A DNA stretch of 64,000 bases. Source: an uncultured Phycisphaeraceae bacterium (GTDB lineage: Bacteria > Planctomycetota > Phycisphaerae > Phycisphaerales > UBA1924). This document shows positions 986 to 61,803 of the stretch, piece after piece. The notes below the pieces were generated by a model that saw nothing but the letters and a program-made list of their open reading frames with translations, was not told the origin of the DNA and made no database searches. The DNA is taken from NCBI GenBank assembly GCA_964588385.1, contig CAZPPG010000016.1, positions 1,060 to 65,059 of the forward strand. The letters run 5' to 3'. Position numbers and translations under genes: made by a program. Each line of letters begins with the position of its first letter. Positions within the stretch are counted from its first letter, which is position 1.

Positions 986-1555
986 TCAGCCCCGCTTCAC
1001 ATAGCGGCGGGTGCCGGGCGTCTGCAATCCCATGAAGGGCGCGACGAAGAGGAGCCCCGGGGCCATCACCAGCCCGATCAGCCCGGTGTAGAGCGCGGAC
1101 GAGAGGCGGGCGAGCAACTGCGTCGTCGGGTCCCAGTTGATCGGTTCGGTATAGAAGGCGGTGTGCAGCGTGATGATCGCGACAACGACGACGTTGACCA
1201 CGATCGCCGCAGCTCCGGAGAGGAACGCCACGGTCAGCGGGTTGCGACGCATCATGATGCCGCGCAGCGTGAGGACCAGTTGCCCGGCGAGCAGGTACCC
1301 GAGGGCGTAGGGCCCGATCATGGTTGCGGCGCCGAAGTCGGTTCTCGGGATCTTCCAGGTCAGGTCGACCATGAGTCCCAGCAGCAGGCACGCCCAGAGT
1401 GAGGCCGATGACGAGGCGAACATCGCGACCACCACCGCGAGCGGCAGAACAAAGCTGGGCGCGATCGGTGTCGGCCCGAGTTGCAGCGCGGGCTTCAGGC
1501 CCGTCTCGAGCCCGAGCATCGCCCACGCCACAAGCGCGAACATCAGCCATCTCAT
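986..1555 (-). CDS. mreD: rod shape-determining protein MreD
   Basis: 189 aa, hydrophobic multi-TM protein. Its ATG overlaps the mreC stop (ATGA at 1552-1555). The call rests mainly on position in the mreB-mreC-mreD order and on size. Confidence 0.7.
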   Translation of the reverse strand: MRWLMFALVAWAMLGLETGLKPALQLGPTPIAPSFVLPLAVVVAMFASSSASLWACLLLGLMVDLTWKIPRTDFGAATMIGPYALGYLLAGQLVLTLRGIMMRRNPLTVAFLSGAAAIVVNVVVVAIITLHTAFYTEPINWDPTTQLLARLSSALYTGLIGLVMAPGLLFVAPFMGLQTPGTRRYVKRG

Positions 1556-2427
1556 GGGCGGCCCTCCCCGCCCGGCGACAACCGCAGCACGACCTCGCCC
1601 ACGCGGTCCAGTCGCAGCGTCGGCCTCACCGTCACCACTGTCCTCAGCGGCTGGTTGGGGGCCGGCTCGGCGGTTTCGACCACGCCGATCAGGAGCATCT
1701 GTGCCGCCCGGGGCCAGGCGGAATCCTGCAGGAGCACGCGCATGCCCGGCTCGATCGCCCGGCGCGGCACGATCCCGCTCATGTCCTCGACGGGTCCGCT
1801 GAGCGTTCCCGCGCCGGTCGGCTTCAGCAGGCAGGTGGGCCCGATGCTGGTGGCGTCCAGCAGGATCATCCCGGTGATCGATCCCGTTCCCGGATCGGTG
1901 ATGGGGAAGACATCACACAGGCGCTCGGCGACATCCTGGACGCGCCCGACAAGCTGCACGCCCGCCGTGGTCGCGATCGCGCCGCGGTCAACCCCCGACG
2001 CTCGTCCGGCGCGCACACGCAGCACCGTGCTGGAGCGGTCGCTGGACGACGCGATGACCGGTGCGACCAACTGCCTGACCTTTGCCTCGGGATAGAGCGC
2101 GGCGCCGGCCTGCAGGTCCGCGATCAGGCCGCGCAGGCGCGCGACCTCCTCCCGCTCAACCCGATAGAGGCGCAGGAGTTCTTCCCGCTCCTGCTCCAGT
2201 CGCCTGATCTGTTCGGGCTGGGCGCTGCGGGGCGTGGCCGGGGCGAGCCAACGCGCGATTCGGGCCGAGGGGTCGCTGACCGGGGCGACGAGTGTGGCGA
2301 GCAGGTCGCCGAACCATCCGGCCCACGCGGTCATGCGAAGGGGCAGAAGACCCATGACAAGCAGCACCAGGATCGACCCGGCGAGCAATCGCCTCGACGG
2401 CTTTGTCTGCTGCGTCATCTGCGCCAT
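1552..2427 (-). CDS. mreC: rod shape-determining protein MreC
   Basis: 291 aa. N-terminal TM helix (LLAGSILVLLVMGLLPL), coiled-coil stretch (IRRLEQEREELLRLYRVEREEVARLRGLIADL), then a beta-rich C-terminal region. Located between mreB and mreD. Confidence 0.8.
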   Translation of the reverse strand: MAQMTQQTKPSRRLLAGSILVLLVMGLLPLRMTAWAGWFGDLLATLVAPVSDPSARIARWLAPATPRSAQPEQIRRLEQEREELLRLYRVEREEVARLRGLIADLQAGAALYPEAKVRQLVAPVIASSSDRSSTVLRVRAGRASGVDRGAIATTAGVQLVGRVQDVAERLCDVFPITDPGTGSITGMILLDATSIGPTCLLKPTGAGTLSGPVEDMSGIVPRRAIEPGMRVLLQDSAWPRAAQMLLIGVVETAEPAPNQPLRTVVTVRPTLRLDRVGEVVLRLSPGGEGRP

Positions 2428-5028: not shown

Positions 5029-5784
5029 ATGCTCAGTTCGCTCACGACCGGCTTCGTCGCCCGCCTTCGCGCCAACGACCAGGCCGCGTGGTTTGAGCTC
5101 TGGCAGACGTTCGGGCCCGTGATCCGCGCCCAGCTCTCCAAGTGGGGCAAGGGCCAGATCGGTTCGCAGACCGTGCAGGACCTGTCGCAGGAGACTCTGG
5201 CCGCGCTCTCGGATTCCATCGATCGCTTCGATCCCACGCGCGGCGCGAGGTTCTCCACCTGGCTCCTGGCCATCGCCAAGCACGTTCTGGGCGACGAGAT
5301 GGACCGGCGAAACGCTCAGAAACGCGGCGGCAACCGGCGCGCCGCCGAACTCGACGAACGCTGGATGGCCGGCAAGTTCGAGGGCGTGGACGAGGCGTAC
5401 GAGGCCGCCGTCTTCCGCGCCAAGGTTGAGGCCGCCATCCGCATGGTCGAGAGAGAATCAGACTTCACCGACTTTGCCATCTATCGCATGCGCGTCCTCG
5501 ACGGCGCGAGCGGCAAGGACGTGGCTTCCTCCCTGGGCCTCTCCGAGCCCACCATCAGCCGACGCCTGGCGAAGGTTCGCGACCTTCTGCGCAAGCGCGT
5601 CGCGCAGGTCGTCGCCACCTATTCCTTCACGGCGGAGGAGCTGGCCGAAGTTGAGCGAAACGGACTCGAACCCAATCCGACTAAGGCCGACGACGCCCTC
5701 TTTGACGAGAGCGTCGCCGAGATCTACCACCGCCAGATGGACCTCAGGCGACGCGACGAGGAAACAGCCCGCATGGGCGGCTGA
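5029..5784 (+). CDS. ECF-type RNA polymerase sigma-70 family factor with C-terminal extension
   Basis: From ATG 5029 (MLSSLTTGFVARL). Region 2 reads QETLAALSDSIDRFDPTRGARFSTWLLAIAKH. The region 4 HTH reads ASSLGLSEPTISRRLAKVRDLLRKR. About 70 extra C-terminal residues follow. Confidence 0.85.
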   Translation: MLSSLTTGFVARLRANDQAAWFELWQTFGPVIRAQLSKWGKGQIGSQTVQDLSQETLAALSDSIDRFDPTRGARFSTWLLAIAKHVLGDEMDRRNAQKRGGNRRAAELDERWMAGKFEGVDEAYEAAVFRAKVEAAIRMVERESDFTDFAIYRMRVLDGASGKDVASSLGLSEPTISRRLAKVRDLLRKRVAQVVATYSFTAEELAEVERNGLEPNPTKADDALFDESVAEIYHRQMDLRRRDEETARMGG

Positions 5785-5849
5785 GTGGGGGGAGGGCGGA
5801 CGGGCCCGCACGACTTCGCAAAGGTCGGGCCCGACCGGGAGCAGCAGCA

Positions 5850-8525
5850 ATGGGAAGCGCCGTCGGCATCATCTTCATCATCCTCGGCGTGCTGGTCGGT
5901 GTTGTCATCGCCGCCGTGCTCGTCATGTATCTCGTTGTGCCCCTCTTCAAGGCAATCGGCTGGATCTTCACCCGCATCTTCGGTTTCATCGGCGGCGAGA
6001 TCGCCGACCTTGCCCGGCTCATCGGCGCCCTTATCACATCCGTCATCTTTCTTCCGCTCATCCTCGGCACCGTCGTCATCGGACGCTGGTCCGCGTCCGC
6101 GCACTTCGGGCGCGCGTTCCAGCGCGAGCTGGCCACCATGGGCGGGTGTCTGTACCGCATGTTCCTCGGGCACCCAGCCCGACTCTTCGGCCTCGCGCCG
6201 CTTACCGAGGGGCTTGAGCACCGCATCCCGGAGGTTGTCCGTGCCGCGCCGGGCTCCGACAAGCCGGCAGGACGCGCCGGGCAGTTCGAGGGCTACAAGA
6301 TCATCGGCTCGCTCATGGGGGGCGGCTCCGGGGCGAAGCTCTATATCGCGGAGCCCGACGCCATCAAGCGCGCCACGTTCGAGCGCCAGGGCTTCGGCGA
6401 CGTCGGACGCGTGGTCATCAAGGTGTTCTCTATCCGTGACGGCAGCACGCTCCCGCAGATCGTGCGCGAGAGCCGCGCTCTGGATGCCGCTCGCAGGCTC
6501 GGCTTCGTCCTTGATCACGATCTGACGCCAGAACGCTTCTTCTACATCACGCGCTATGTTCCCGGCGAGTCGCTCGGACTTGTCACGCAGCAGTTGCACG
6601 CGTCGGGCTCCACCGGCTTGGGCGCGAAGGAGCTCTCGAAGGCGATGAAGTATGTCGCCGACCTCCTCGCCACGCTCGACGCCTACCACAGGGGCGGCCT
6701 CTGGCACAAGGACGTGAAGCCCGACAACATCATCGTGCACGACGACACGGCGCACCTGGTTGACCTCGGCCTCGTCACGCCCCTGCGTTCGGCGATGACG
6801 CTGACCACGCACGGGACGGAGTATTTCCGCGATCCGGAGATGGTCCGCATGGCGCTGAAGGGCGCGAAGGTCCACCAGGTGGACGGCGCCAAGTTCGATG
6901 TGTTCGCCGTCGGCGCGGTTCTCTACTCCGTCATTGAGAACTCGTTCCCTGCCCACGGTGGACTCAGCCAGATCACCAAGCGCTGCCCCGAGTCCCTCCG
7001 CTGGATCGTTCGTCGCGCCATGGCCGATTACGACAAGCGTTATCCCACGGCCAGCGACATGCTCGCGGATCTCGCCGCGCTCCGCGCCGCATCCGACCCC
7101 TTTGCGCTCAGGCCCGCGGACCTTCCCAGCGTTCGCGGCGGGAACGTCGAGCAGCCGCCCCTGCCCCACGCCGACGCCGCGCCCTTCGTCGATGCGGCAC
7201 GCGCTGCGCACGCAGCCTCCGCGGTTCCCCCCCACACGCCTCATGCCCCACATGCTCCCGCCGGTGCGGAGCCGGCCGCACCATCCGCGGCGCCTCCCCC
7301 CGCCTCAGCGCGCACGCGCACACGCCCGCAACTGGTCGTCACCGACTGGTTCAAGGGCCGGTACCGCGTCTCCGGCGAAGAAGCGGTCGCGGCGTCTCCC
7401 TCCGCCCCGAACCCGGGCGCGAGCGGCGCTCGGGCCGCCGCTGCCGCCGCGATGGCCAACGCCGCCGAAGCGATGAACCGCGCCGCCGAGCGATTCGGCT
7501 CCCCGCGAGGCGCTGCGGCGGCTGGTTCCGTTGACCCGCGCGTCGCTCGGGCCGGCTCCCCCGATCCCCACGCGGTCCCTCACGCGCCCTCTCCGGCCCG
7601 AACCCACGCACAGGCCCAACGCGTCCGCGCGATTCCCGATCCGGGCCGCCGCACCGCGCAGGAGCAGCTCCGCTCCGCCCGTGAGAGAGCCGCCGCGGCT
7701 CGCGAGCGAGCTCGCGCCCGCATGTCCGGCCGTCAGAACCCCCGTGCGCACCGGACCGCTCGCGTTGCAGGCGTCAACTCCGGCCTGTCGACCGCCGTCT
7801 TCGGCTTCATCGGCGTCTGCGTCCTCGTCGCGGGGGGCGTGGTGGTCGGCTCGCTTCTCCGGGGCACATCCATCACACCCCAGGGCCCGCGCCTGGTGAT
7901 CGGTGAGGATCCCGCGCTCCTGCCCAACCTCTCACAAAGTCTGTCGGAAGGTGATCCCGTGGCGATTCCTGCCGCTGCGAACTCCGACGACATCGTCAAC
8001 GCCCGGATCGCCGACGCCATGGAGACCGCATCCACTCGCATCATCGAGCTCCAGCAGGTCTTCCGCGAAGCCAGCGAGCTGGCCAGCGTCGCCGCTCAAT
8101 CCCCCGGCGGGACCGTCATCGTGCTCACCGATGTGCTGCCTCCCATGTCGCGCGGCGCCCGCGCTGCCATCGAAGCCGCGACCGCGCGCATGATGGCCTT
8201 CGGCTTCACCCTCGTCGGCAACGTCCCCGGCATTGATGTCGAGGGCGAAGAGATCGATCGCCAGAACGACATCCTCGCCCGCCTCCGCGCCGCCCGTGGC
8301 CAGGTCCCCCTGGGTTCCGACGACGCGACACGCATCTTCCAGCAGTTCCTGGCCGCGAATCCCGAGCATGGCGACGCCATCGTCTGGATCGCGCCCGGTG
8401 AGGATCGCGACGAACCGACCTTCTACCTCGTCGTCCGCAGCGAGACGGGTGAGAGCGGCGTCCGGGCCGATCGCATCCGGCGAACGCTCAGGACGGCCCT
8501 TGAGCACACCGCGCCCCAGTTCTAG
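5850..8525 (+). CDS. membrane Ser/Thr protein kinase (Hanks type) with long low-complexity linker and C-terminal extracytoplasmic domain
   Basis: N-terminal TM helices, then G-loop GSLMGGGSGAKLY, catalytic loop HKDVKPDNIIV, DLG, and GTEYFRDPE. An Ala/Pro-rich segment spans about 7110-7770, followed by a TM helix (AVFGFIGVCVLVAGGVVVGSLL) and a ~220-aa C-terminal domain. Confidence 0.9.
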   Translation: MGSAVGIIFIILGVLVGVVIAAVLVMYLVVPLFKAIGWIFTRIFGFIGGEIADLARLIGALITSVIFLPLILGTVVIGRWSASAHFGRAFQRELATMGGCLYRMFLGHPARLFGLAPLTEGLEHRIPEVVRAAPGSDKPAGRAGQFEGYKIIGSLMGGGSGAKLYIAEPDAIKRATFERQGFGDVGRVVIKVFSIRDGSTLPQIVRESRALDAARRLGFVLDHDLTPERFFYITRYVPGESLGLVTQQLHASGSTGLGAKELSKAMKYVADLLATLDAYHRGGLWHKDVKPDNIIVHDDTAHLVDLGLVTPLRSAMTLTTHGTEYFRDPEMVRMALKGAKVHQVDGAKFDVFAVGAVLYSVIENSFPAHGGLSQITKRCPESLRWIVRRAMADYDKRYPTASDMLADLAALRAASDPFALRPADLPSVRGGNVEQPPLPHADAAPFVDAARAAHAASAVPPHTPHAPHAPAGAEPAAPSAAPPPASARTRTRPQLVVTDWFKGRYRVSGEEAVAASPSAPNPGASGARAAAAAAMANAAEAMNRAAERFGSPRGAAAAGSVDPRVARAGSPDPHAVPHAPSPARTHAQAQRVRAIPDPGRRTAQEQLRSARERAAAARERARARMSGRQNPRAHRTARVAGVNSGLSTAVFGFIGVCVLVAGGVVVGSLLRGTSITPQGPRLVIGEDPALLPNLSQSLSEGDPVAIPAAANSDDIVNARIADAMETASTRIIELQQVFREASELASVAAQSPGGTVIVLTDVLPPMSRGARAAIEAATARMMAFGFTLVGNVPGIDVEGEEIDRQNDILARLRAARGQVPLGSDDATRIFQQFLAANPEHGDAIVWIAPGEDRDEPTFYLVVRSETGESGVRADRIRRTLRTALEHTAPQF

Positions 8526-57166: not shown

Positions 57167-57706
57167 ATGAAGTACCGGATGCGAGTGATAGCCCCCGCCT
57201 CATCCAAGCGAAACGCACCGCTTGCTCGGGGCGTCTTTGCCTACTCATTCGGCAACGATTGCTGGCGATGGGGCGCCGTTGCTTGCGAATATCCGTGGTT
57301 TGGGCCCGGCGTTGACGGCTACTTGGTCCATTTCTACGACGTCGTGAGTCGCGCAGGCGATGCCGTCCCGGACCTTAGCGCTGGCGGGCTTGTGATTCCG
57401 CCGTGCATCACCAACGCGATGCCATGGAGGCGAGGACTGTTTCGGAACGAGTCGTCGGTCGTGCCGCGAGACGGCCGGAGCATGCCGCGGCATTGCCTTT
57501 GGTCGCCTGAAGACAACTTGTATCGCGATGAGCACGACACAGTGCTCCCGAGCGCATTTGAACCCTGCGGACTTAGGATGCTGGCGGGTATCCAGGCCAT
57601 CGAAGAGCTCTTGCTCTCCGCATCTCTGATGGGCTGCTGGGATGGACGCGGCATCTGGCGACTCTGGCCGCCCCGAGATTGGCGGGGCGTGAGCCGGGCT
57701 CGATGA
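57167..57706 (+). CDS. hypothetical protein (islet ORF-A; faint immunity-protein-like pattern)
   Basis: 179 aa with ordinary-looking composition and no homolog recognised. First ORF of the compositionally atypical islet. Confidence 0.5.
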   Translation: MKYRMRVIAPASSKRNAPLARGVFAYSFGNDCWRWGAVACEYPWFGPGVDGYLVHFYDVVSRAGDAVPDLSAGGLVIPPCITNAMPWRRGLFRNESSVVPRDGRSMPRHCLWSPEDNLYRDEHDTVLPSAFEPCGLRMLAGIQAIEELLLSASLMGCWDGRGIWRLWPPRDWRGVSRAR

Positions 57707-57752
57707 TCATGATGTGACCGCACCAAAGGCCGGGCGTCCGCTTTGCAGGCGA

Positions 57753-57949
57753 GAGCCGGGGGCGTCCGCCCCGCTCCACCAAGGATGCGCCCTTCGGGCG
57801 GTGTGGAGGTCGCTGCGCGGCGGGTTTACCGGGGGTAGCGTTCGCCCCCCCCACACACACCGCTCCCTTGACCCCCGGCTGTCAACTTTCAGCCCTGTCG
57901 GGCTGAAGAGCACCGAGCTTGGCCCAACGCGGCCAATCTGCGGTGGCAC
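57753..57949 (+). repeat. copy 1 of a structured GC-rich element (candidate ncRNA or cassette boundary)
   Basis: Block 1 (57753-57787) is gagccgggggcgtccgccccgctccaccaaggatg. Block 2 (57810-57833) is tcgctgcgcggcgggtttaccggg. A hairpin lies at 57890-57905. Block 3 (57906-57949) is aagagcaccgagcttggcccaacgcggccaatctgcggtggcac. All blocks are shared with copy 2. Confidence 0.7.
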
Positions 57950-58021
57950 GGGGGATGAGCAAGGAATCTTGGTGCGACCTGCGACAATCTGAGGTGGTCG
58001 GCAATCGATAAAGTAGATTCC

Positions 58022-58366
58022 ATGAGCGACACCGCCAATCTCGGAGACTCAGTTTTCTTTGCGGCCCGTTCGGCAACGTTTCGTACGGTGTTTCGTTGCT
58101 TGCGAGCGAGCACTCTAACGAACGCCGAGATTCGCGCACTGCTCAATCGGGAAGAAGAGTTTGATGCGATCGGCGGTTGGGACTTCAGCTCCCTCTCTTT
58201 ACATTCCCTCCGTGTGCTGCAAGAGGTGCTGGCCAAGATTGCAGAGGATCCGGTCGCGGCGTCTTCGCATTGGAACCCGGAGCGGCGACCCATATTCGTG
58301 AGCGACATCGAGAAGTGTCGCAGAAATCTGGACGACCGCATTCGGTGGAGTGAGGGTCGGTCGTGA
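58022..58366 (+). CDS. hypothetical protein (islet ORF-B)
   Basis: 114 aa with helical-looking sequence. No SD-like sequence upstream. Flanked on both sides by the repeated element. Coding status is uncertain. Confidence 0.45.
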   Translation: MSDTANLGDSVFFAARSATFRTVFRCLRASTLTNAEIRALLNREEEFDAIGGWDFSSLSLHSLRVLQEVLAKIAEDPVAASSHWNPERRPIFVSDIEKCRRNLDDRIRWSEGRS

Positions 58367-58410
58367 TCGCTGACTTTGTCCATCGTAAGATGCAGTAGAC
58401 GTAGCGTGAC

Positions 58411-58592
58411 GAGCCGGGGGCGTACGCCTCGCTCCACGAAGGATGTCGCTGCACGACGGGTTTACCGGGCGGCGTTGCCCTCGCGTGGGGGCGGGGCTGC
58501 ATTGCCCCGGGCTCCATTCATGCATCCCGTTGGGATGCTCAGAGTGGAGAAGAGCACCGAGATTGCCGCAGAGCCGGCAACTTCGGTGGCAC
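58411..58592 (+). repeat. copy 2 of the structured GC-rich element
   Basis: Block 1 at 58411-58445, block 2 at 58446-58469, hairpin at 58523-58537, block 3 at 58550-58592. Same order and orientation as copy 1, 658 nt downstream. Confidence 0.7.
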
Positions 58593-58676
58593 TCTCAAGG
58601 AAGGTCGGGGCCACCTGCCTGTCCGTTCCTTGGTTCGCAAGGCCCGAGTAGAGGATGGAGTTCTACATCGATCTGC

Positions 58677-59732
58677 TTACCTGCGCACGGCTGTGAATGT
58701 AAAGAGTTTGTCAAGAAACTCCTTTTCTTCCATTGGCCGCGCAAATATTGAGAGTAGTTCGTCAGAACGAAGAATGCGGTTATATAACGACGTTAGCAGC
58801 CTAGTTGCGCATGAGCCTGCATCTCGAAGTCTGCTTACGTACTTGCTACCACTTGGATATTGATATGGAGGTTCGTTACCATGTACAAATTTGTTTCTCC
58901 AATCATAAATGGTTCGTACCCAATTGAGTACATCCCGAGGGTCATGCGTGTCGTGTAGCAATATCGCAGATACAAGTGCTACTGTCGATTGGTTCATTGC
59001 TTTAGCTGCAAACAGGGCCTCGATTGCAATATGCATGCGAAAAGCAATATCCTGTTGGTAGAGCGGTTGCATTGCACATCCGAACATATAGAGCGAACAC
59101 TCTAGGCGAGAGCCATGTGCTTCGAGTTTCTCGCTTGATGTGAGGCGAGCGAGATTGGCAAAGCGTTCGGCCTGCACTTCATATAGGCGCGAAAAAAGCA
59201 GTGGAAAAGAAGACAAGTCTGATGGCTTCTGGTGTGGCGCGAACCCGGTGCCATGTTCGAGTCTTGGCATGAAGCGGTTTGGTCTGTCGTAAAAAGAGAA
59301 CGTCCTGCCCAGCGCGTCGACTCTTGCTGTGTAGAGGTAGTTCGCGTGACCTGGAAGTGGGCCAATTACTTGCAACGTCGAGACAATCACCTTTGCGACA
59401 GCCTCGGACCAGTGCCACCACTTCAGGTGATCGCCCCAAGGGGCGTCATATTCATATCGGAATAGCAGCCGAACATGATCGGCCTCGATGAAACCACGTT
59501 GCTTACCGATATGCGCCTGCCAGAGAGCTAGATCTCTCTTCGATGGCTTTCCGTAGGAGAGTACGCCGCGATACCGGTCTGGCTTTAGTATACGACGTCG
59601 CGATGAGACGTTCAATGCGCCGACGTAGAGCACGCCGACGAGGAGACATATCTTCGCAGAATACTCTTTATCATGTTCAACAATCAGTGGCTTACGTGAA
59701 TTGCGCGACTTGGGGGCCACTTTAATCCTCAC
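58677..59732 (-). CDS. HEPN-motif protein (Apea/Abi-like architecture), candidate RNase toxin or defence effector
   Basis: 351 aa. The C-terminal helical region carries YDWRNKFVHGNE, an R-x4-H motif at 58881-58898. Very low GC (22 of 60 G+C at 58861-58920). GTG start at 59732 overlaps lepA by 11 nt; the alternative GTG 59720 lies 1 nt after the lepA TAA. Confidence 0.7.
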   Translation of the reverse strand: MRIKVAPKSRNSRKPLIVEHDKEYSAKICLLVGVLYVGALNVSSRRRILKPDRYRGVLSYGKPSKRDLALWQAHIGKQRGFIEADHVRLLFRYEYDAPWGDHLKWWHWSEAVAKVIVSTLQVIGPLPGHANYLYTARVDALGRTFSFYDRPNRFMPRLEHGTGFAPHQKPSDLSSFPLLFSRLYEVQAERFANLARLTSSEKLEAHGSRLECSLYMFGCAMQPLYQQDIAFRMHIAIEALFAAKAMNQSTVALVSAILLHDTHDPRDVLNWVRTIYDWRNKFVHGNEPPYQYPSGSKYVSRLRDAGSCATRLLTSLYNRILRSDELLSIFARPMEEKEFLDKLFTFTAVRR

Positions 59733-61641
59733 TCGTATCCAGCACCGCCATGAACGCCTCCTGGGGGATGTTCACGGAGCCGACGTTCTTCATCCGCTTC
59801 TTGCCTTCCTTCTGCTTCTCGAGCAGCTTGCGCTTACGAGAGACGTCGCCGCCGTAGCACTTGGCGGTGACGTCCTTGCGGAAGGCCTTGATGGTTTCGC
59901 GGGCGATGATCTTGCCGCCGATGGCGGCCTGGAGCGGGATCTCGAACTGGTGGCGGGGGATCTGGCCGCGGAGCTTTGAGAGGATCTGGCGGCCGCGCTG
60001 CTCGGACTTGTCCTTGTGCGTGATGAGCGCGAGGGCCTGCACCGGGTCGCCGTTGATGAGGATGTCAACCTTGACGAGTCGGTCGGGCTCGTAGCCGATG
60101 ATCTCGTAGTCCATGGTGCCATAGCCGCTGGTGATGCCCTTCAACTTGTCGTAGAAGTCGTAGATGATCTCGGCGAGCGGGATGTGGAAGGAGAGCATCT
60201 CGCGCGTGTCGGAGACGAAGGTCTGCGACTTGTAGATGCCGCGGCGTTCCATGCAGAGCTTCATGATGTCGCCGATCTTGTCCTTGGGCAGGATCAGATC
60301 CACGCGGCAGATCGGCTCCTTGATCTCCTCGATCACGCCCGCATCCGGAAGGTCCGCCGGGTTGTGAATCTCTTCCTCGACAAGCTCGCCTCCCTTGCCC
60401 TTCGTTGTCACGATGTAGGACACCGTGGGTGCGGTCTGCACGACCTGCACGCCGCCCTCGCGCTCGAGGCGTTCCTGCACGATGTCCATGTGGAGCAGGC
60501 CGAGGAAGCCGCAGCGGAAGCCGAAGCCGAGCGCCTCGGAGTGCACGGCCTGAAACGTGAACGCCGAGTCGTTGAGCGAGAGCTTCTCGATCGCTTCGCG
60601 GAGTTCCTCGAAGGAGTTGCCGCGTTGTTCTTCATCCGTCGCGGGGTAGAAGTCGCAGAAGACCATCTGGCGCGGCGGCTGGTAGCCCTCGAGGGGCTCG
60701 GCGGCGGGATGGATGTCGAGCGTGATGGTGTCGCCGACGCGGACATCGGCGAGGGTGCGGATGGCGGCGACCATGTAGCCGGTCTCGCCCGCGCTGAGCG
60801 AGGGGACGCGATTGGGCTTGGGTGTGTACTTGCCGAGATCGGTGATCTGGAACGTGCGGCCGAGGCCCATCATGCGGATCTTGTCGCCGACCTTGATGGA
60901 GCCGTCGAACATTCGGATGTAGACGATGACGCCGCGGTAGTCGTCGTAGACCGCGTCGAAGATGAGGGCGCGGGCCTGCGTGATCTCGCTTGGGCGCGGC
61001 GCGGGGAGCTTGTCGCAGATCGCAGCGAGCAGCTCGGGGAGGCCCTGGCCGGTCTTTGCGGAGACGTAGATGCACTCTTCGGCGGGGAAGCCGAGGACTT
61101 GTTCCAGTTCCTGCGCGACCTTGTCGGGCTGGGCCGAGGGGAGGTCGATCTTGTTGATGACGGGGATGATCGTGAGGTTCTCGTTGATCGCGAGGTAGGC
61201 GTTGACGACGGTCTGTGCCTGCACGCCCTGCGTGGAGTCGACGACGAGCAGCGCGCCCTCGCACGCCTTCAACGCGCGCGAGACCTCGTACGTGAAGTCC
61301 ACGTGCCCGGGCGTGTCGATGAAGTTGAGCATGTAGAGCTCGCCGTGGGTGTCGGCTTTGTCCGCGGCGTTCTTGGTCTTGTGCGTGCCCGCCTCGTCGA
61401 CGGGGGCTTCGTAGTCGGTCTCGAGTTCGTCAGCGGTCGCGCCGGGCTTGTGGCGGTGCATGACGGTGACGGCGGAGGCCTTGATGGTGATGCCGCGTTC
61501 GCGCTCGAGGTCCATGGAGTCCAGGAGCTGGTCGCGCGCTTCGCGGGCCGAGACGGCGTTGGTCGCCTGGAGGAGGCGGTCGGCGAGGGTGGACTTGCCG
61601 TGGTCGATGTGGGCGATGATGGAGAAGTTGCGGATGTTCAT
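59722..61641 (-). CDS. lepA: translation elongation factor 4
   Basis: ATG 61641 ([24 protein letters not shown]). Contains [11 protein letters not shown] and NKIDL. Full-length LepA likeness apart from one insertion. Confidence 0.95.
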   Translation of the reverse strand: [639 protein letters not shown]

Positions 61642-61803
61642 GGGAGGGTGAAGGTCGGGCGGGCGGACGTAACCGCTGGCCGGAAAGGGGCTTGCGAATC
61701 GTGCGTGGTGCGGCGACAGCGAGGCCGTCCCGCGTGGGCAGGATGGTATGCGAGGGAATACGAGCACACCGCTCTGGAGAGCGGTGCCGCCGTGAAGCGA
61801 GCG

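Follow-up and report, generated by a model that had tools for sequence, protein, structure and literature searches.

The data presented here concern a single gene, encoding a protein designated P0001, that lies directly downstream of lepA (EF4) in a 64,000-nucleotide (nt) stretch of DNA from an uncultured Phycisphaeraceae bacterium (contig CAZPPG010000016.1 of assembly GCA_964588385.1); this whole stretch is referred to as the window. The explanation that best accommodates the data, to which a probability of about 55% may be given, is that P0001 is a stand-alone, ApeA-like HEPN conflict RNase, which occupies a variable slot at the lepA stop codon and is expressed via lepA. This model takes the C-terminal domain to be a metal-independent RNase of the HEPN type, distantly akin to the HEPN domain of ApeA, with E234 and R275-x4-H280 as its presumed active site. 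The N-terminal alpha/beta domain of ~165 amino acids (aa) would hold the nuclease off until a signal is received, possibly in the manner of the non-HEPN domains of ApeA. The gene would have been acquired horizontally, as a promoterless open reading frame (ORF) placed in the slot at the lepA stop, where transcription could be provided by read-through from lepA and translation by coupling or re-initiation, using a GAGGA sequence in the last lepA codons. Exchange of such cargo may proceed by homologous recombination, with the conserved lepA end and the structured repeats that follow the cargo as the recombining sequences; this is the preferred and simplest account of the turnover observed in the slot. 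Under this model, the protein would be active as an RNase and would act in abortive infection or as a toxin.

The gene, its start codon and its family

In the ORF list, the reading frame extends over 58677..59732 on the minus strand (351 aa, counted from a GTG) and lepA over 59722..61767, likewise on the minus strand. The minus-strand junction reads ...AGT GAG GAT TAA A GTG GCC..., in which the lepA TAA occupies 59724-59722. Two in-frame GTG codons are available, an upstream one at 59732-59730, which would create an 11-nt overlap with lepA, and a second at 59720-59718, one base past the TAA; the first internal methionine of the 351-aa reading is residue 155. These positions had all been given in an earlier reading of the window made without database searches (the sequence-only reading), and each was confirmed in the sequence. 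The GTG at 59720 is most likely the true start, since the upstream GTG is out of frame in locus L001, where the spacer preceding the homolog P0002 is one base longer (TGA AA GTG), since the homolog in locus L005 starts with an ATG 5 nt past the lepA TGA, and since the identical database copy of the window protein is 347 aa in length, as is the 56%-identical P0002. The GTG at 59732 was rejected as a start, being out of frame or absent in the homologous loci. Where the sequence-only reading had allowed that the gene either abuts or overlaps the lepA stop, abutment is thus retained and the overlap is not. The gene is accordingly given as 58677..59720 (-), 347 aa, from the GTG at 59720-59718 to a TAA at 58679-58677. 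Residues are numbered on this 347-aa form, R275 and H280 being the R279 and H284 of the earlier, 351-aa numbering.

The gene is compositionally foreign. GC content across the ORF is 0.47-0.54, against 0.64-0.70 in the flanks, and GC content at third codon positions (GC3) is 0.50, against 0.92 in lepA, a contrast that bears out the earlier description of an AT-rich foreign gene. It also belongs to a very small family. A word-indexed search of 5.8 billion proteins matched the protein itself and P0002 only, and when 1.84 billion representatives were scanned exhaustively with HMMER, nine hits were obtained, of which six (P0002-P0007) are genuine and 23-56% identical to the query. P0010, a significant match in the representative search, is a remote relative; P0008 and P0009 were dropped from the family as repeat or carbohydrate-binding module proteins matched through low complexity. 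No Pfam, NCBIfam or PADLOC model matched in single-sequence or per-member scans of the close family, and phmmer found no match to P0001 among PDB sequences. The protein is real, conserved and very rare.

Members of the family are also found docked on other housekeeping genes. In loci L007 and L008 the family gene starts 8 nt past the polA stop, in L009 the GTG start of the full ORF overlaps the TGA of fumC (GTGA), and in L002 the family gene follows purD. The GC3 of the family gene and its neighbor is 0.38 and 0.87 for polA, 0.60 and 0.88 for fumC, and 0.73 and 0.88 for purD, so that at every locus with an adjacent housekeeping gene, those with lepA included, a cargo GC3 of 0.38-0.73 stands against 0.87-0.92 in the host gene. 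No downstream gene is shared among the family loci, and for this reason no candidate antitoxin can be named. Two observations were made on individual loci. The homolog at L009 9260-10450 is full-length, and its database entry, P0006, is a gene call truncated to 149 aa. In L002, the 3' end of purD is duplicated, immediately upstream of the HEPN-family gene, in a 124-nt direct repeat (1286-1409 and 1620-1743, with 94% identity), and this duplication may be a trace of cargo integration or of rearrangement. No description of such a docking arrangement on housekeeping 3' ends was found in the literature searched.

Evidence bearing on a HEPN domain

An AlphaFold model built on the seven close-family sequences (predicted local distance difference test score 83.5; predicted template-modelling score 0.86) divides the protein into an alpha/beta part, residues ~1-165, and an all-helical part, residues ~172-344. 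The N-terminal domain (59226..59720, minus strand) has model strands at residues 20-32, 53-57, 85-95, 124-134 and 139-145. The full-length model gave nothing significant in Foldseek searches of the PDB and BFVD, including no match for this N-terminal domain, which is possibly a sensor or regulatory domain. The C-terminal domain (residues ~170-347; 58680..59210, minus strand), assigned as ApeA-like HEPN on the model helices, PDB profile matches and hhalign, has model helices at 205-215, 222-237, 244-254, 261-279 and 293-318. The sequence-only reading had predicted an all-helical C-terminal part of ~140 aa; its helical character stands, whereas its length is nearer to 175 aa.

Two segments of this domain carry the argument. 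The first is the R-x4-H motif RNKFVH (58881..58898, minus strand), containing R275 and H280. The second is the IAIEALF helix (59010..59030, minus strand), containing the acidic residue E234, whose codon occupies 59021-59019. Both had been picked out earlier, the motif as IYDWRNKFVHGNE with its arginine and histidine at 58898-58881 and the helix as lying upstream of it, and both were found where expected, the helix at 59030-59010. In the alignment of the close family (seven sequences), invariant residues include E234, L236, F237, R275, H280 and G281. A larger alignment of 114 sequences adds remote relatives gathered with a C-terminal profile and consists mostly of archaeal proteins of ~285 aa; here E234, R275 and H280 are the only invariant columns, and L236 and F237 are nearly invariant. 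Because the arginine and histidine are invariant in the seven close homologs and in the 114 relatives, the alignments rule out a chance match to the motif. The residue that follows the arginine is N in six of the close homologs and D in P0005, and among the remote relatives shown it is S in most and N in one. The E-x3-[KR] form of the acidic-helix motif is present in some members only.

These features may be compared with the published definition of the domain. In HEPN domains the R-x4-6-H motif is placed where helix 3 ends, running into the loop toward helix 4, the arginine is followed by a polar residue, mostly N, D or H, and a conserved acidic residue lies upstream near the motif (PMC3710099). 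In the model of P0001, helix 261-279 bears R275 near its end, H280 opens the loop, the long helix 293-318 follows, and E234 is located in helix 222-237. The predicted passage of the motif from helix end into loop would agree with its published position (PMC3710099).

Profile searches of the PDB retrieved ApeA proteins and essentially nothing else. The best of these matches (E = 3.8e-4) was obtained with a 15-sequence C-terminal profile (A4), while the 114-sequence profile (A7) gave E = 0.016 and the close family alone (A2) gave E = 0.5. Each of the ApeA alignments pairs the 'IAIEaLF' helix with 'WIAIESL' and 'IY.wRNkfVH' with 'IYRTRNLIVH'. Counted along the printed alignment, R275 corresponds to R502 and H280 to H507 of Ec2ApeA, and R502A is the published catalytic mutant that was used for the ApeA structure. 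For two remote relatives, P0016 and P0122, the best Pfam models are HEPN_RiboL-PSP and HEPN_Apea, both below threshold. The highest-probability Foldseek match of the C-terminal model is likewise a HEPN protein, 2hsb, at a non-significant level (probability 0.60, E = 0.63, template-modelling score 0.33-0.42). On these profiles and conserved residues, and with no confirmed fold match, a HEPN domain of the ApeA type is considered likely. The sequence-only reading had proposed a HEPN domain and had likened the protein to Apea-like proteins; the assignment gains support from the invariance of E234, R275 and H280, from the PDB profile matches and from the position of the motif in the model, and the likening proved correct, ApeA HEPN proteins being the only PDB profile matches.

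The variable slot downstream of lepA

The lepA gene (59722..61767, minus strand) is recognized by the Pfam models GTP_EFTU, GTP_EFTU_D2, EFG_C and LepA_C, with E = 1e-54 to 1e-49 for GTP_EFTU, EFG_C and LepA_C, and its stop codon forms the 5' edge of the slot. Two features of LepA itself were observed. The listed ORF includes ~40 extra N-terminal residues, possibly untranslated, and the G domain (residues 44-255) has 212 residues, against 188 positions in the Pfam model, with an acidic or lysine-rich insertion between G motifs, around HKPGATADELETDYEAPVDEAGTHKTKNAADKADTHGE.

A search of species-representative genomes with the lepA 3' end found three Phycisphaerae/Planctomycetota metagenome-assembled genomes (L010-L012), and a metagenome scan added one further locus, L013; together with the window, L001 and L005, seven junctions could be compared. 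Among these seven, the last 93 nt of lepA are identical at 86-93 of 93 positions, and similarity ends at the stop codon. Beyond it, four unrelated types of cargo occupy the slot across the seven Phycisphaerae loci. Three diverged members of the present family (25-56% identical) directly follow lepA, in the window, L001 and L005. No family member was found by tblastn in L010-L012, and the ORF list of L013 shows cargo of the L012 type instead; in each of these four loci another ORF starts at the lepA stop or at most ~20 nt beyond it. In L010 this is a gene of 318/328 aa with N-terminal hydrophobic stretches (5322-6278), in L011 a gene of 382 aa (6571-7719, minus strand), and in L012 and L013 a gene of 98 aa (L012 3441-3737; L013 1997-2293, minus strand). 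The lepA ends of L001, which carries HEPN-type cargo, and of L012, which carries the 98-aa cargo, are identical at 93 of 93 positions. No cargo gene in the slot has a Pfam or PADLOC match, and GC3 is low in all of them (0.49-0.67); the three other cargo families may be further conflict genes. Judged by these comparisons, the slot at the lepA stop is evidently a cargo hotspot in this Phycisphaerae clade. The sequence-only reading had named lepB or a terminator as what would normally be found there. With respect to lepB this was not upheld, as the alternative occupants of the slot in this clade are unrelated genes.

The spacing at the junctions bears on how the cargo may be expressed. The gap from the lepA stop to the start of the family gene is 1 nt in the window, 2 nt in L001 and 5 nt in L005. 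A Shine-Dalgarno-like GAGGA (59726..59730, minus strand) can be read in the last lepA codons (AGT GAG GAT TAA), 5 nt before the GTG. The sequence GAGGATTRA is present at the lepA end in all seven loci, with the cargo starting 1-20 nt downstream, and GAGGA precedes the HEPN-type starts and the L011 start by 5-9 nt; it is probably used as a ribosome-binding site. A promoter scan for sigma-70-type sites gave no promoter-like site at the lepA junction, and no terminator-like site was found there. Owing to the tight spacing, the lack of promoter- or terminator-like sites at the junction and the GAGGA in the lepA tail, read-through transcription from lepA with translational coupling is the default expectation. 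The earlier proposal that the gene rides on the lepA transcript is therefore supported, as an inference from the 1-base gap, the junction scans and the placement of GAGGA within lepA.

The 3' edge of the slot is formed by a structured repeat of ~210 nt, which is found after every slot cargo, often directly past its stop codon, and always on the lepA strand. In the window, copy A (58407..58619, minus strand; nhmmer E = 1.6e-49, folding z -3.3, with covariation counts) lies 57 nt past the cargo stop, and copy B (57749..57982, minus strand; nhmmer E = 5.4e-49) represents a second sequence subtype in the alignments. Searched with a profile of the repeat, each locus has copies only downstream of lepA, and there are none elsewhere in the 64-kb window. 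The repeat folds strongly on either strand (z ~ -3.2), and between its two subtypes the hairpins have diverged through paired changes; 87.7% of cells pair in the consensus structure, a share that drops to 31-47% with slid partners, and five pairs are changed on both sides. Genes and repeats form arrays, the window having an ORF, a repeat, a gene and a repeat, L001 three gene-repeat units, and L013 tandem units. No repeat is present at the family loci docked on fumC, polA and purD. The repeat may function as a site of recombination or as a terminator or insulator, or it may give rise to a stable RNA. A remnant of a tRNA or tmRNA, considered because the reverse strand has GCTCCACCA, was rejected, as ARAGORN and Rfam found nothing, and an integron attC was rejected on account of length (~210 nt, against 60-140 nt), of RYYYAAC/GTTRRRY cores not being seen by eye in the repeat alignments, and of no integrase being found among the nearby ORFs scanned with Pfam. 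The sequence GAGGATTR, which recurs before a second cassette ORF in L001, was also rejected as a recombination core, its enrichment not exceeding chance. In L013, the first hairpin of one repeat is interrupted by a transposase gene of the IS1595 family (ISXO2-like; 1236-1919, plus strand, locus coordinates), which has terminal inverted repeats.

Two further ORFs lie in the variable region of the window, neither with a Pfam or PADLOC match. A 114-aa gene between the two repeats (58022..58366, plus strand; GC 0.57), convergent with lepA, recurs in sister genomes, with 91% identity in L011 and 77-79% in L013, where a truncated copy is also present. At the distal end lies a 179-aa ORF (57167..57706, plus strand), opposite in orientation relative to lepA; the third gene in the array of L001 (2035-2562) matches it at 33% identity (E = 1.7e-25). 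A Pfam scan of the main ORFs at ~51.5-62.8 kb identified QRPTase, biotin ligase, 2-hydroxyacid dehydrogenase, sulfotransferase, LepA and methyltransferase, and no recombinase or integron integrase among these ORFs, which lie within ~8 kb of the slot.

Competing explanations and known systems

Several results weigh against the proposed model. Curated HEPN models (Pfam, NCBIfam) and PADLOC match no close member of the family, even at E <= 10, Foldseek returns no significant match for the whole protein (PDB, BFVD) or for the C-terminal domain (PDB), and the ApeA matches are modest (E ~4e-4 at best) and depend on the presence of remote relatives in the profile. Co-transcription with lepA is read from spacing only, and a promoter inside lepA may serve the gene instead. 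In addition, P0004 (L003, L004) abuts no housekeeping gene and has a long upstream gap, and no defence genes or signs of phage defence are nearby, the Pfam-scanned neighbors being housekeeping genes or ORFans. The sequence-only reading had tied its assignment to conservation of the motif residues and to detection of a HEPN fold; the motif proved invariant in 114 sequences, whereas curated profiles and Foldseek gave nothing significant for the fold. These missing matches, and the many non-specific structural matches that helical bundles yield, could indicate that the C-terminal domain is an unrelated helical bundle with only a motif-level, coincidental likeness to HEPN. However, the only invariant columns in 114 sequences are the three residues expected of a HEPN active site, the significant or near-significant PDB profile matches are all to ApeA HEPN domains with both motifs aligned, and the helix-end position of the motif fits the HEPN definition, so that a coincidence of this kind is quite improbable. 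It is also conceivable, if unlikely, that the gene has no antiviral role and is instead a selfish toxin or addiction module, in which the N-terminal domain or a small partner would act as antitoxin to the HEPN RNase and docking on essential genes would serve persistence of the cassette. HEPN domains are common as toxins (PMC3710099), the genes are foreign in composition and sit tightly against the conserved housekeeping genes lepA, fumC, polA and purD, and the surroundings hold no defence genes. However, no conserved neighbor is fit to be an antitoxin, the closest characterized relatives (ApeA) are stand-alone defence proteins, and the slot holds non-HEPN cargo as well.

A different question is how the gene arrived, as distinct from what it does. 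Site-specific mobility would make the repeats recombination sites like attC and the lepA end the primary attachment and expression site. Such a mechanism could explain why cassettes consisting of an ORF alone are bounded exactly by the lepA stop on one side and a structured repeat on the other, why gene-repeat-gene-repeat arrays occur with all repeats in one orientation, and why the repeats are strongly structured with some covariation; furthermore, HEPN integron cassettes are known, for example PDB 3jrt (PMC3710099). It is nevertheless doubtful, because the Pfam scan of the main ORFs within ~8 kb of the slot revealed no recombinase, the repeats are longer than attC and by eye lack RYYYAAC and GTTRRRY, some genes point the same way as the repeats and others the opposite way, the junction motif GAGGATTR is no more frequent than expected by chance, and the members docked on fumC, polA and purD have no repeat. 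Homologous recombination between the lepA end and the repeats remains the preferred account of exchange. Lastly, the placement of three diverged members directly after lepA, together with the occurrence of HEPN domains in RNA-processing proteins (PMC3710099), might suggest a housekeeping RNA-processing or ribosome-associated factor that acts with LepA. However, the same lepA end is followed by unrelated genes in sister genomes, other members follow fumC, polA and purD, GC3 is far from that of the host genes, and the family is extremely rare (nine hits in 1.84 billion representatives); a role of this sort is highly improbable. Since the slot is shared by unrelated cargo and the family docks on other genes too, a functional link to LepA was rejected.

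A broader and more speculative proposal, tentative and for the present unlikely to hold in full, is that the lepA stop and the ~210-nt repeats together constitute an undescribed site in Phycisphaerae for the capture and expression of cassettes, namely promoterless, AT-rich conflict genes, with a new, minimal HEPN nuclease of ApeA-like type among them, that are slotted in one ORF at a time and translationally coupled to lepA. Their exchange would be neither that of a classical integron nor that of an integrase-borne island, and docking on fumC, polA and purD would reflect a general hitch-hiking on gene 3' ends. If the HEPN assignment is true, P0001 would be a very small ApeA-like nuclease, about half the size of ApeA, that differs in its N-terminal domain and escapes Pfam, NCBIfam and PADLOC; single-protein HEPN conflict systems would then extend into the Planctomycetota, and a compact scaffold would be available in which to study how such nucleases are kept inactive. 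The setting may outweigh the protein, as a hotspot that starts at the lepA stop would represent an unusual route by which AT-rich genes acquired horizontally are expressed from a GC-rich genome. It also offers a search handle, in that variable ORFs abutting conserved stop codons could lead to new conflict genes in poorly studied phyla.

Among known systems, ApeA (HEPN_Apea; Ec1-Ec4ApeA, PDB 9HXB, 9HXD, 9HXI, 9HXJ and 9HXN) provides the only PDB relatives found by profile search. The two families have in common the 'IAlE.L' helix and the 'iY..RN.lVH' motif, and each consists of a single gene whose product has a non-HEPN N-terminal part. ApeA is a stand-alone abortive-infection nuclease that cleaves tRNA anticodon loops, as is known for Ec2ApeA. 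Its ~590-620 aa are divided among an N-terminal domain, a Mid domain and a HEPN domain that is split and carries insertions, and it forms large rings and is activated by deoxydinucleotides. P0001, in contrast, has 347 aa, a single small alpha/beta N-terminal domain and a contiguous HEPN domain, and it is docked on lepA, whereas ApeA is carried in phage or satellite hotspots. The PADLOC ApeA models match none of P0001, P0002, P0003, P0005, P0007 and P0010, and the Pfam ApeA model likewise fails to match P0001. The 114-sequence profile aligns weakly to the region that precedes the HEPN domain of Ec3ApeA, which is only a lead. Because its architecture is much smaller than that of ApeA, P0001 is not an ApeA orthologue but a distinct, smaller variant; by analogy, it may nonetheless work like ApeA.

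The unannotated, mostly archaeal family of ~285 aa (P0010-P0135), one member of which has been named 'Apea-like HEPN' by the Joint Genome Institute, agrees with the present family in its two-part layout and in the invariant E...R-x4-H. An hhalign comparison of the close family with this family gave a local match at 96% (E = 2.5e-9) and a global match at 94.9% over 260 columns. Because the global match extends over that many columns, the N-terminal domains of both families may be related. However, identity to this family is only 13-17%, the R-S variant of the motif is usual there, and its genes are found in ORFan-rich islands with intergenic space of their own, not abutting housekeeping genes. 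Among the islands examined, two of three have an integrase-type gene, one of them a weak Pfam hit, which suggests that these archaeal islands are integrated mobile elements. The loci concerned include L014 (1408-2586 and 6001-6888) and L018 (6001-6846 and 11603-12577), with Nitrosarchaeum and other archaeal relatives in islands of small ORFans that contain a tyrosine-integrase gene, the one in L018 being the weak Pfam hit.

[quoted passage not shown] By analogy with such proteins, metal-independent RNase activity is expected of P0001. In contrast to HepT, P0001 has an extra N-terminal domain, and its loci have no MNT antitoxin or other conserved partner. No direct sequence or structure match of the P0001 family to minimal HEPN toxins was obtained.

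With integrons, whose cassettes include HEPN proteins such as PDB 3jrt (PMC3710099), the slot shares promoterless single-ORF cargo expressed from an upstream element, a structured repeat after each ORF, and arrays. It differs in that its repeats are ~210 nt in length and have no attC core motifs, and in that the site of expression is the 3' end of a housekeeping gene and not attI/Pc. Variable hotspots flanked by core genes also hold defence systems, with a fixed site marked by a conserved gene and differing cargo in close genomes. In contrast to these, the slot described here holds a single ORF that starts 1-20 nt past the stop codon of its neighbor, the cargo appears to borrow both the transcript and the ribosome-binding site of that neighbor, and the 3' edge is formed by a locus-specific structured repeat.

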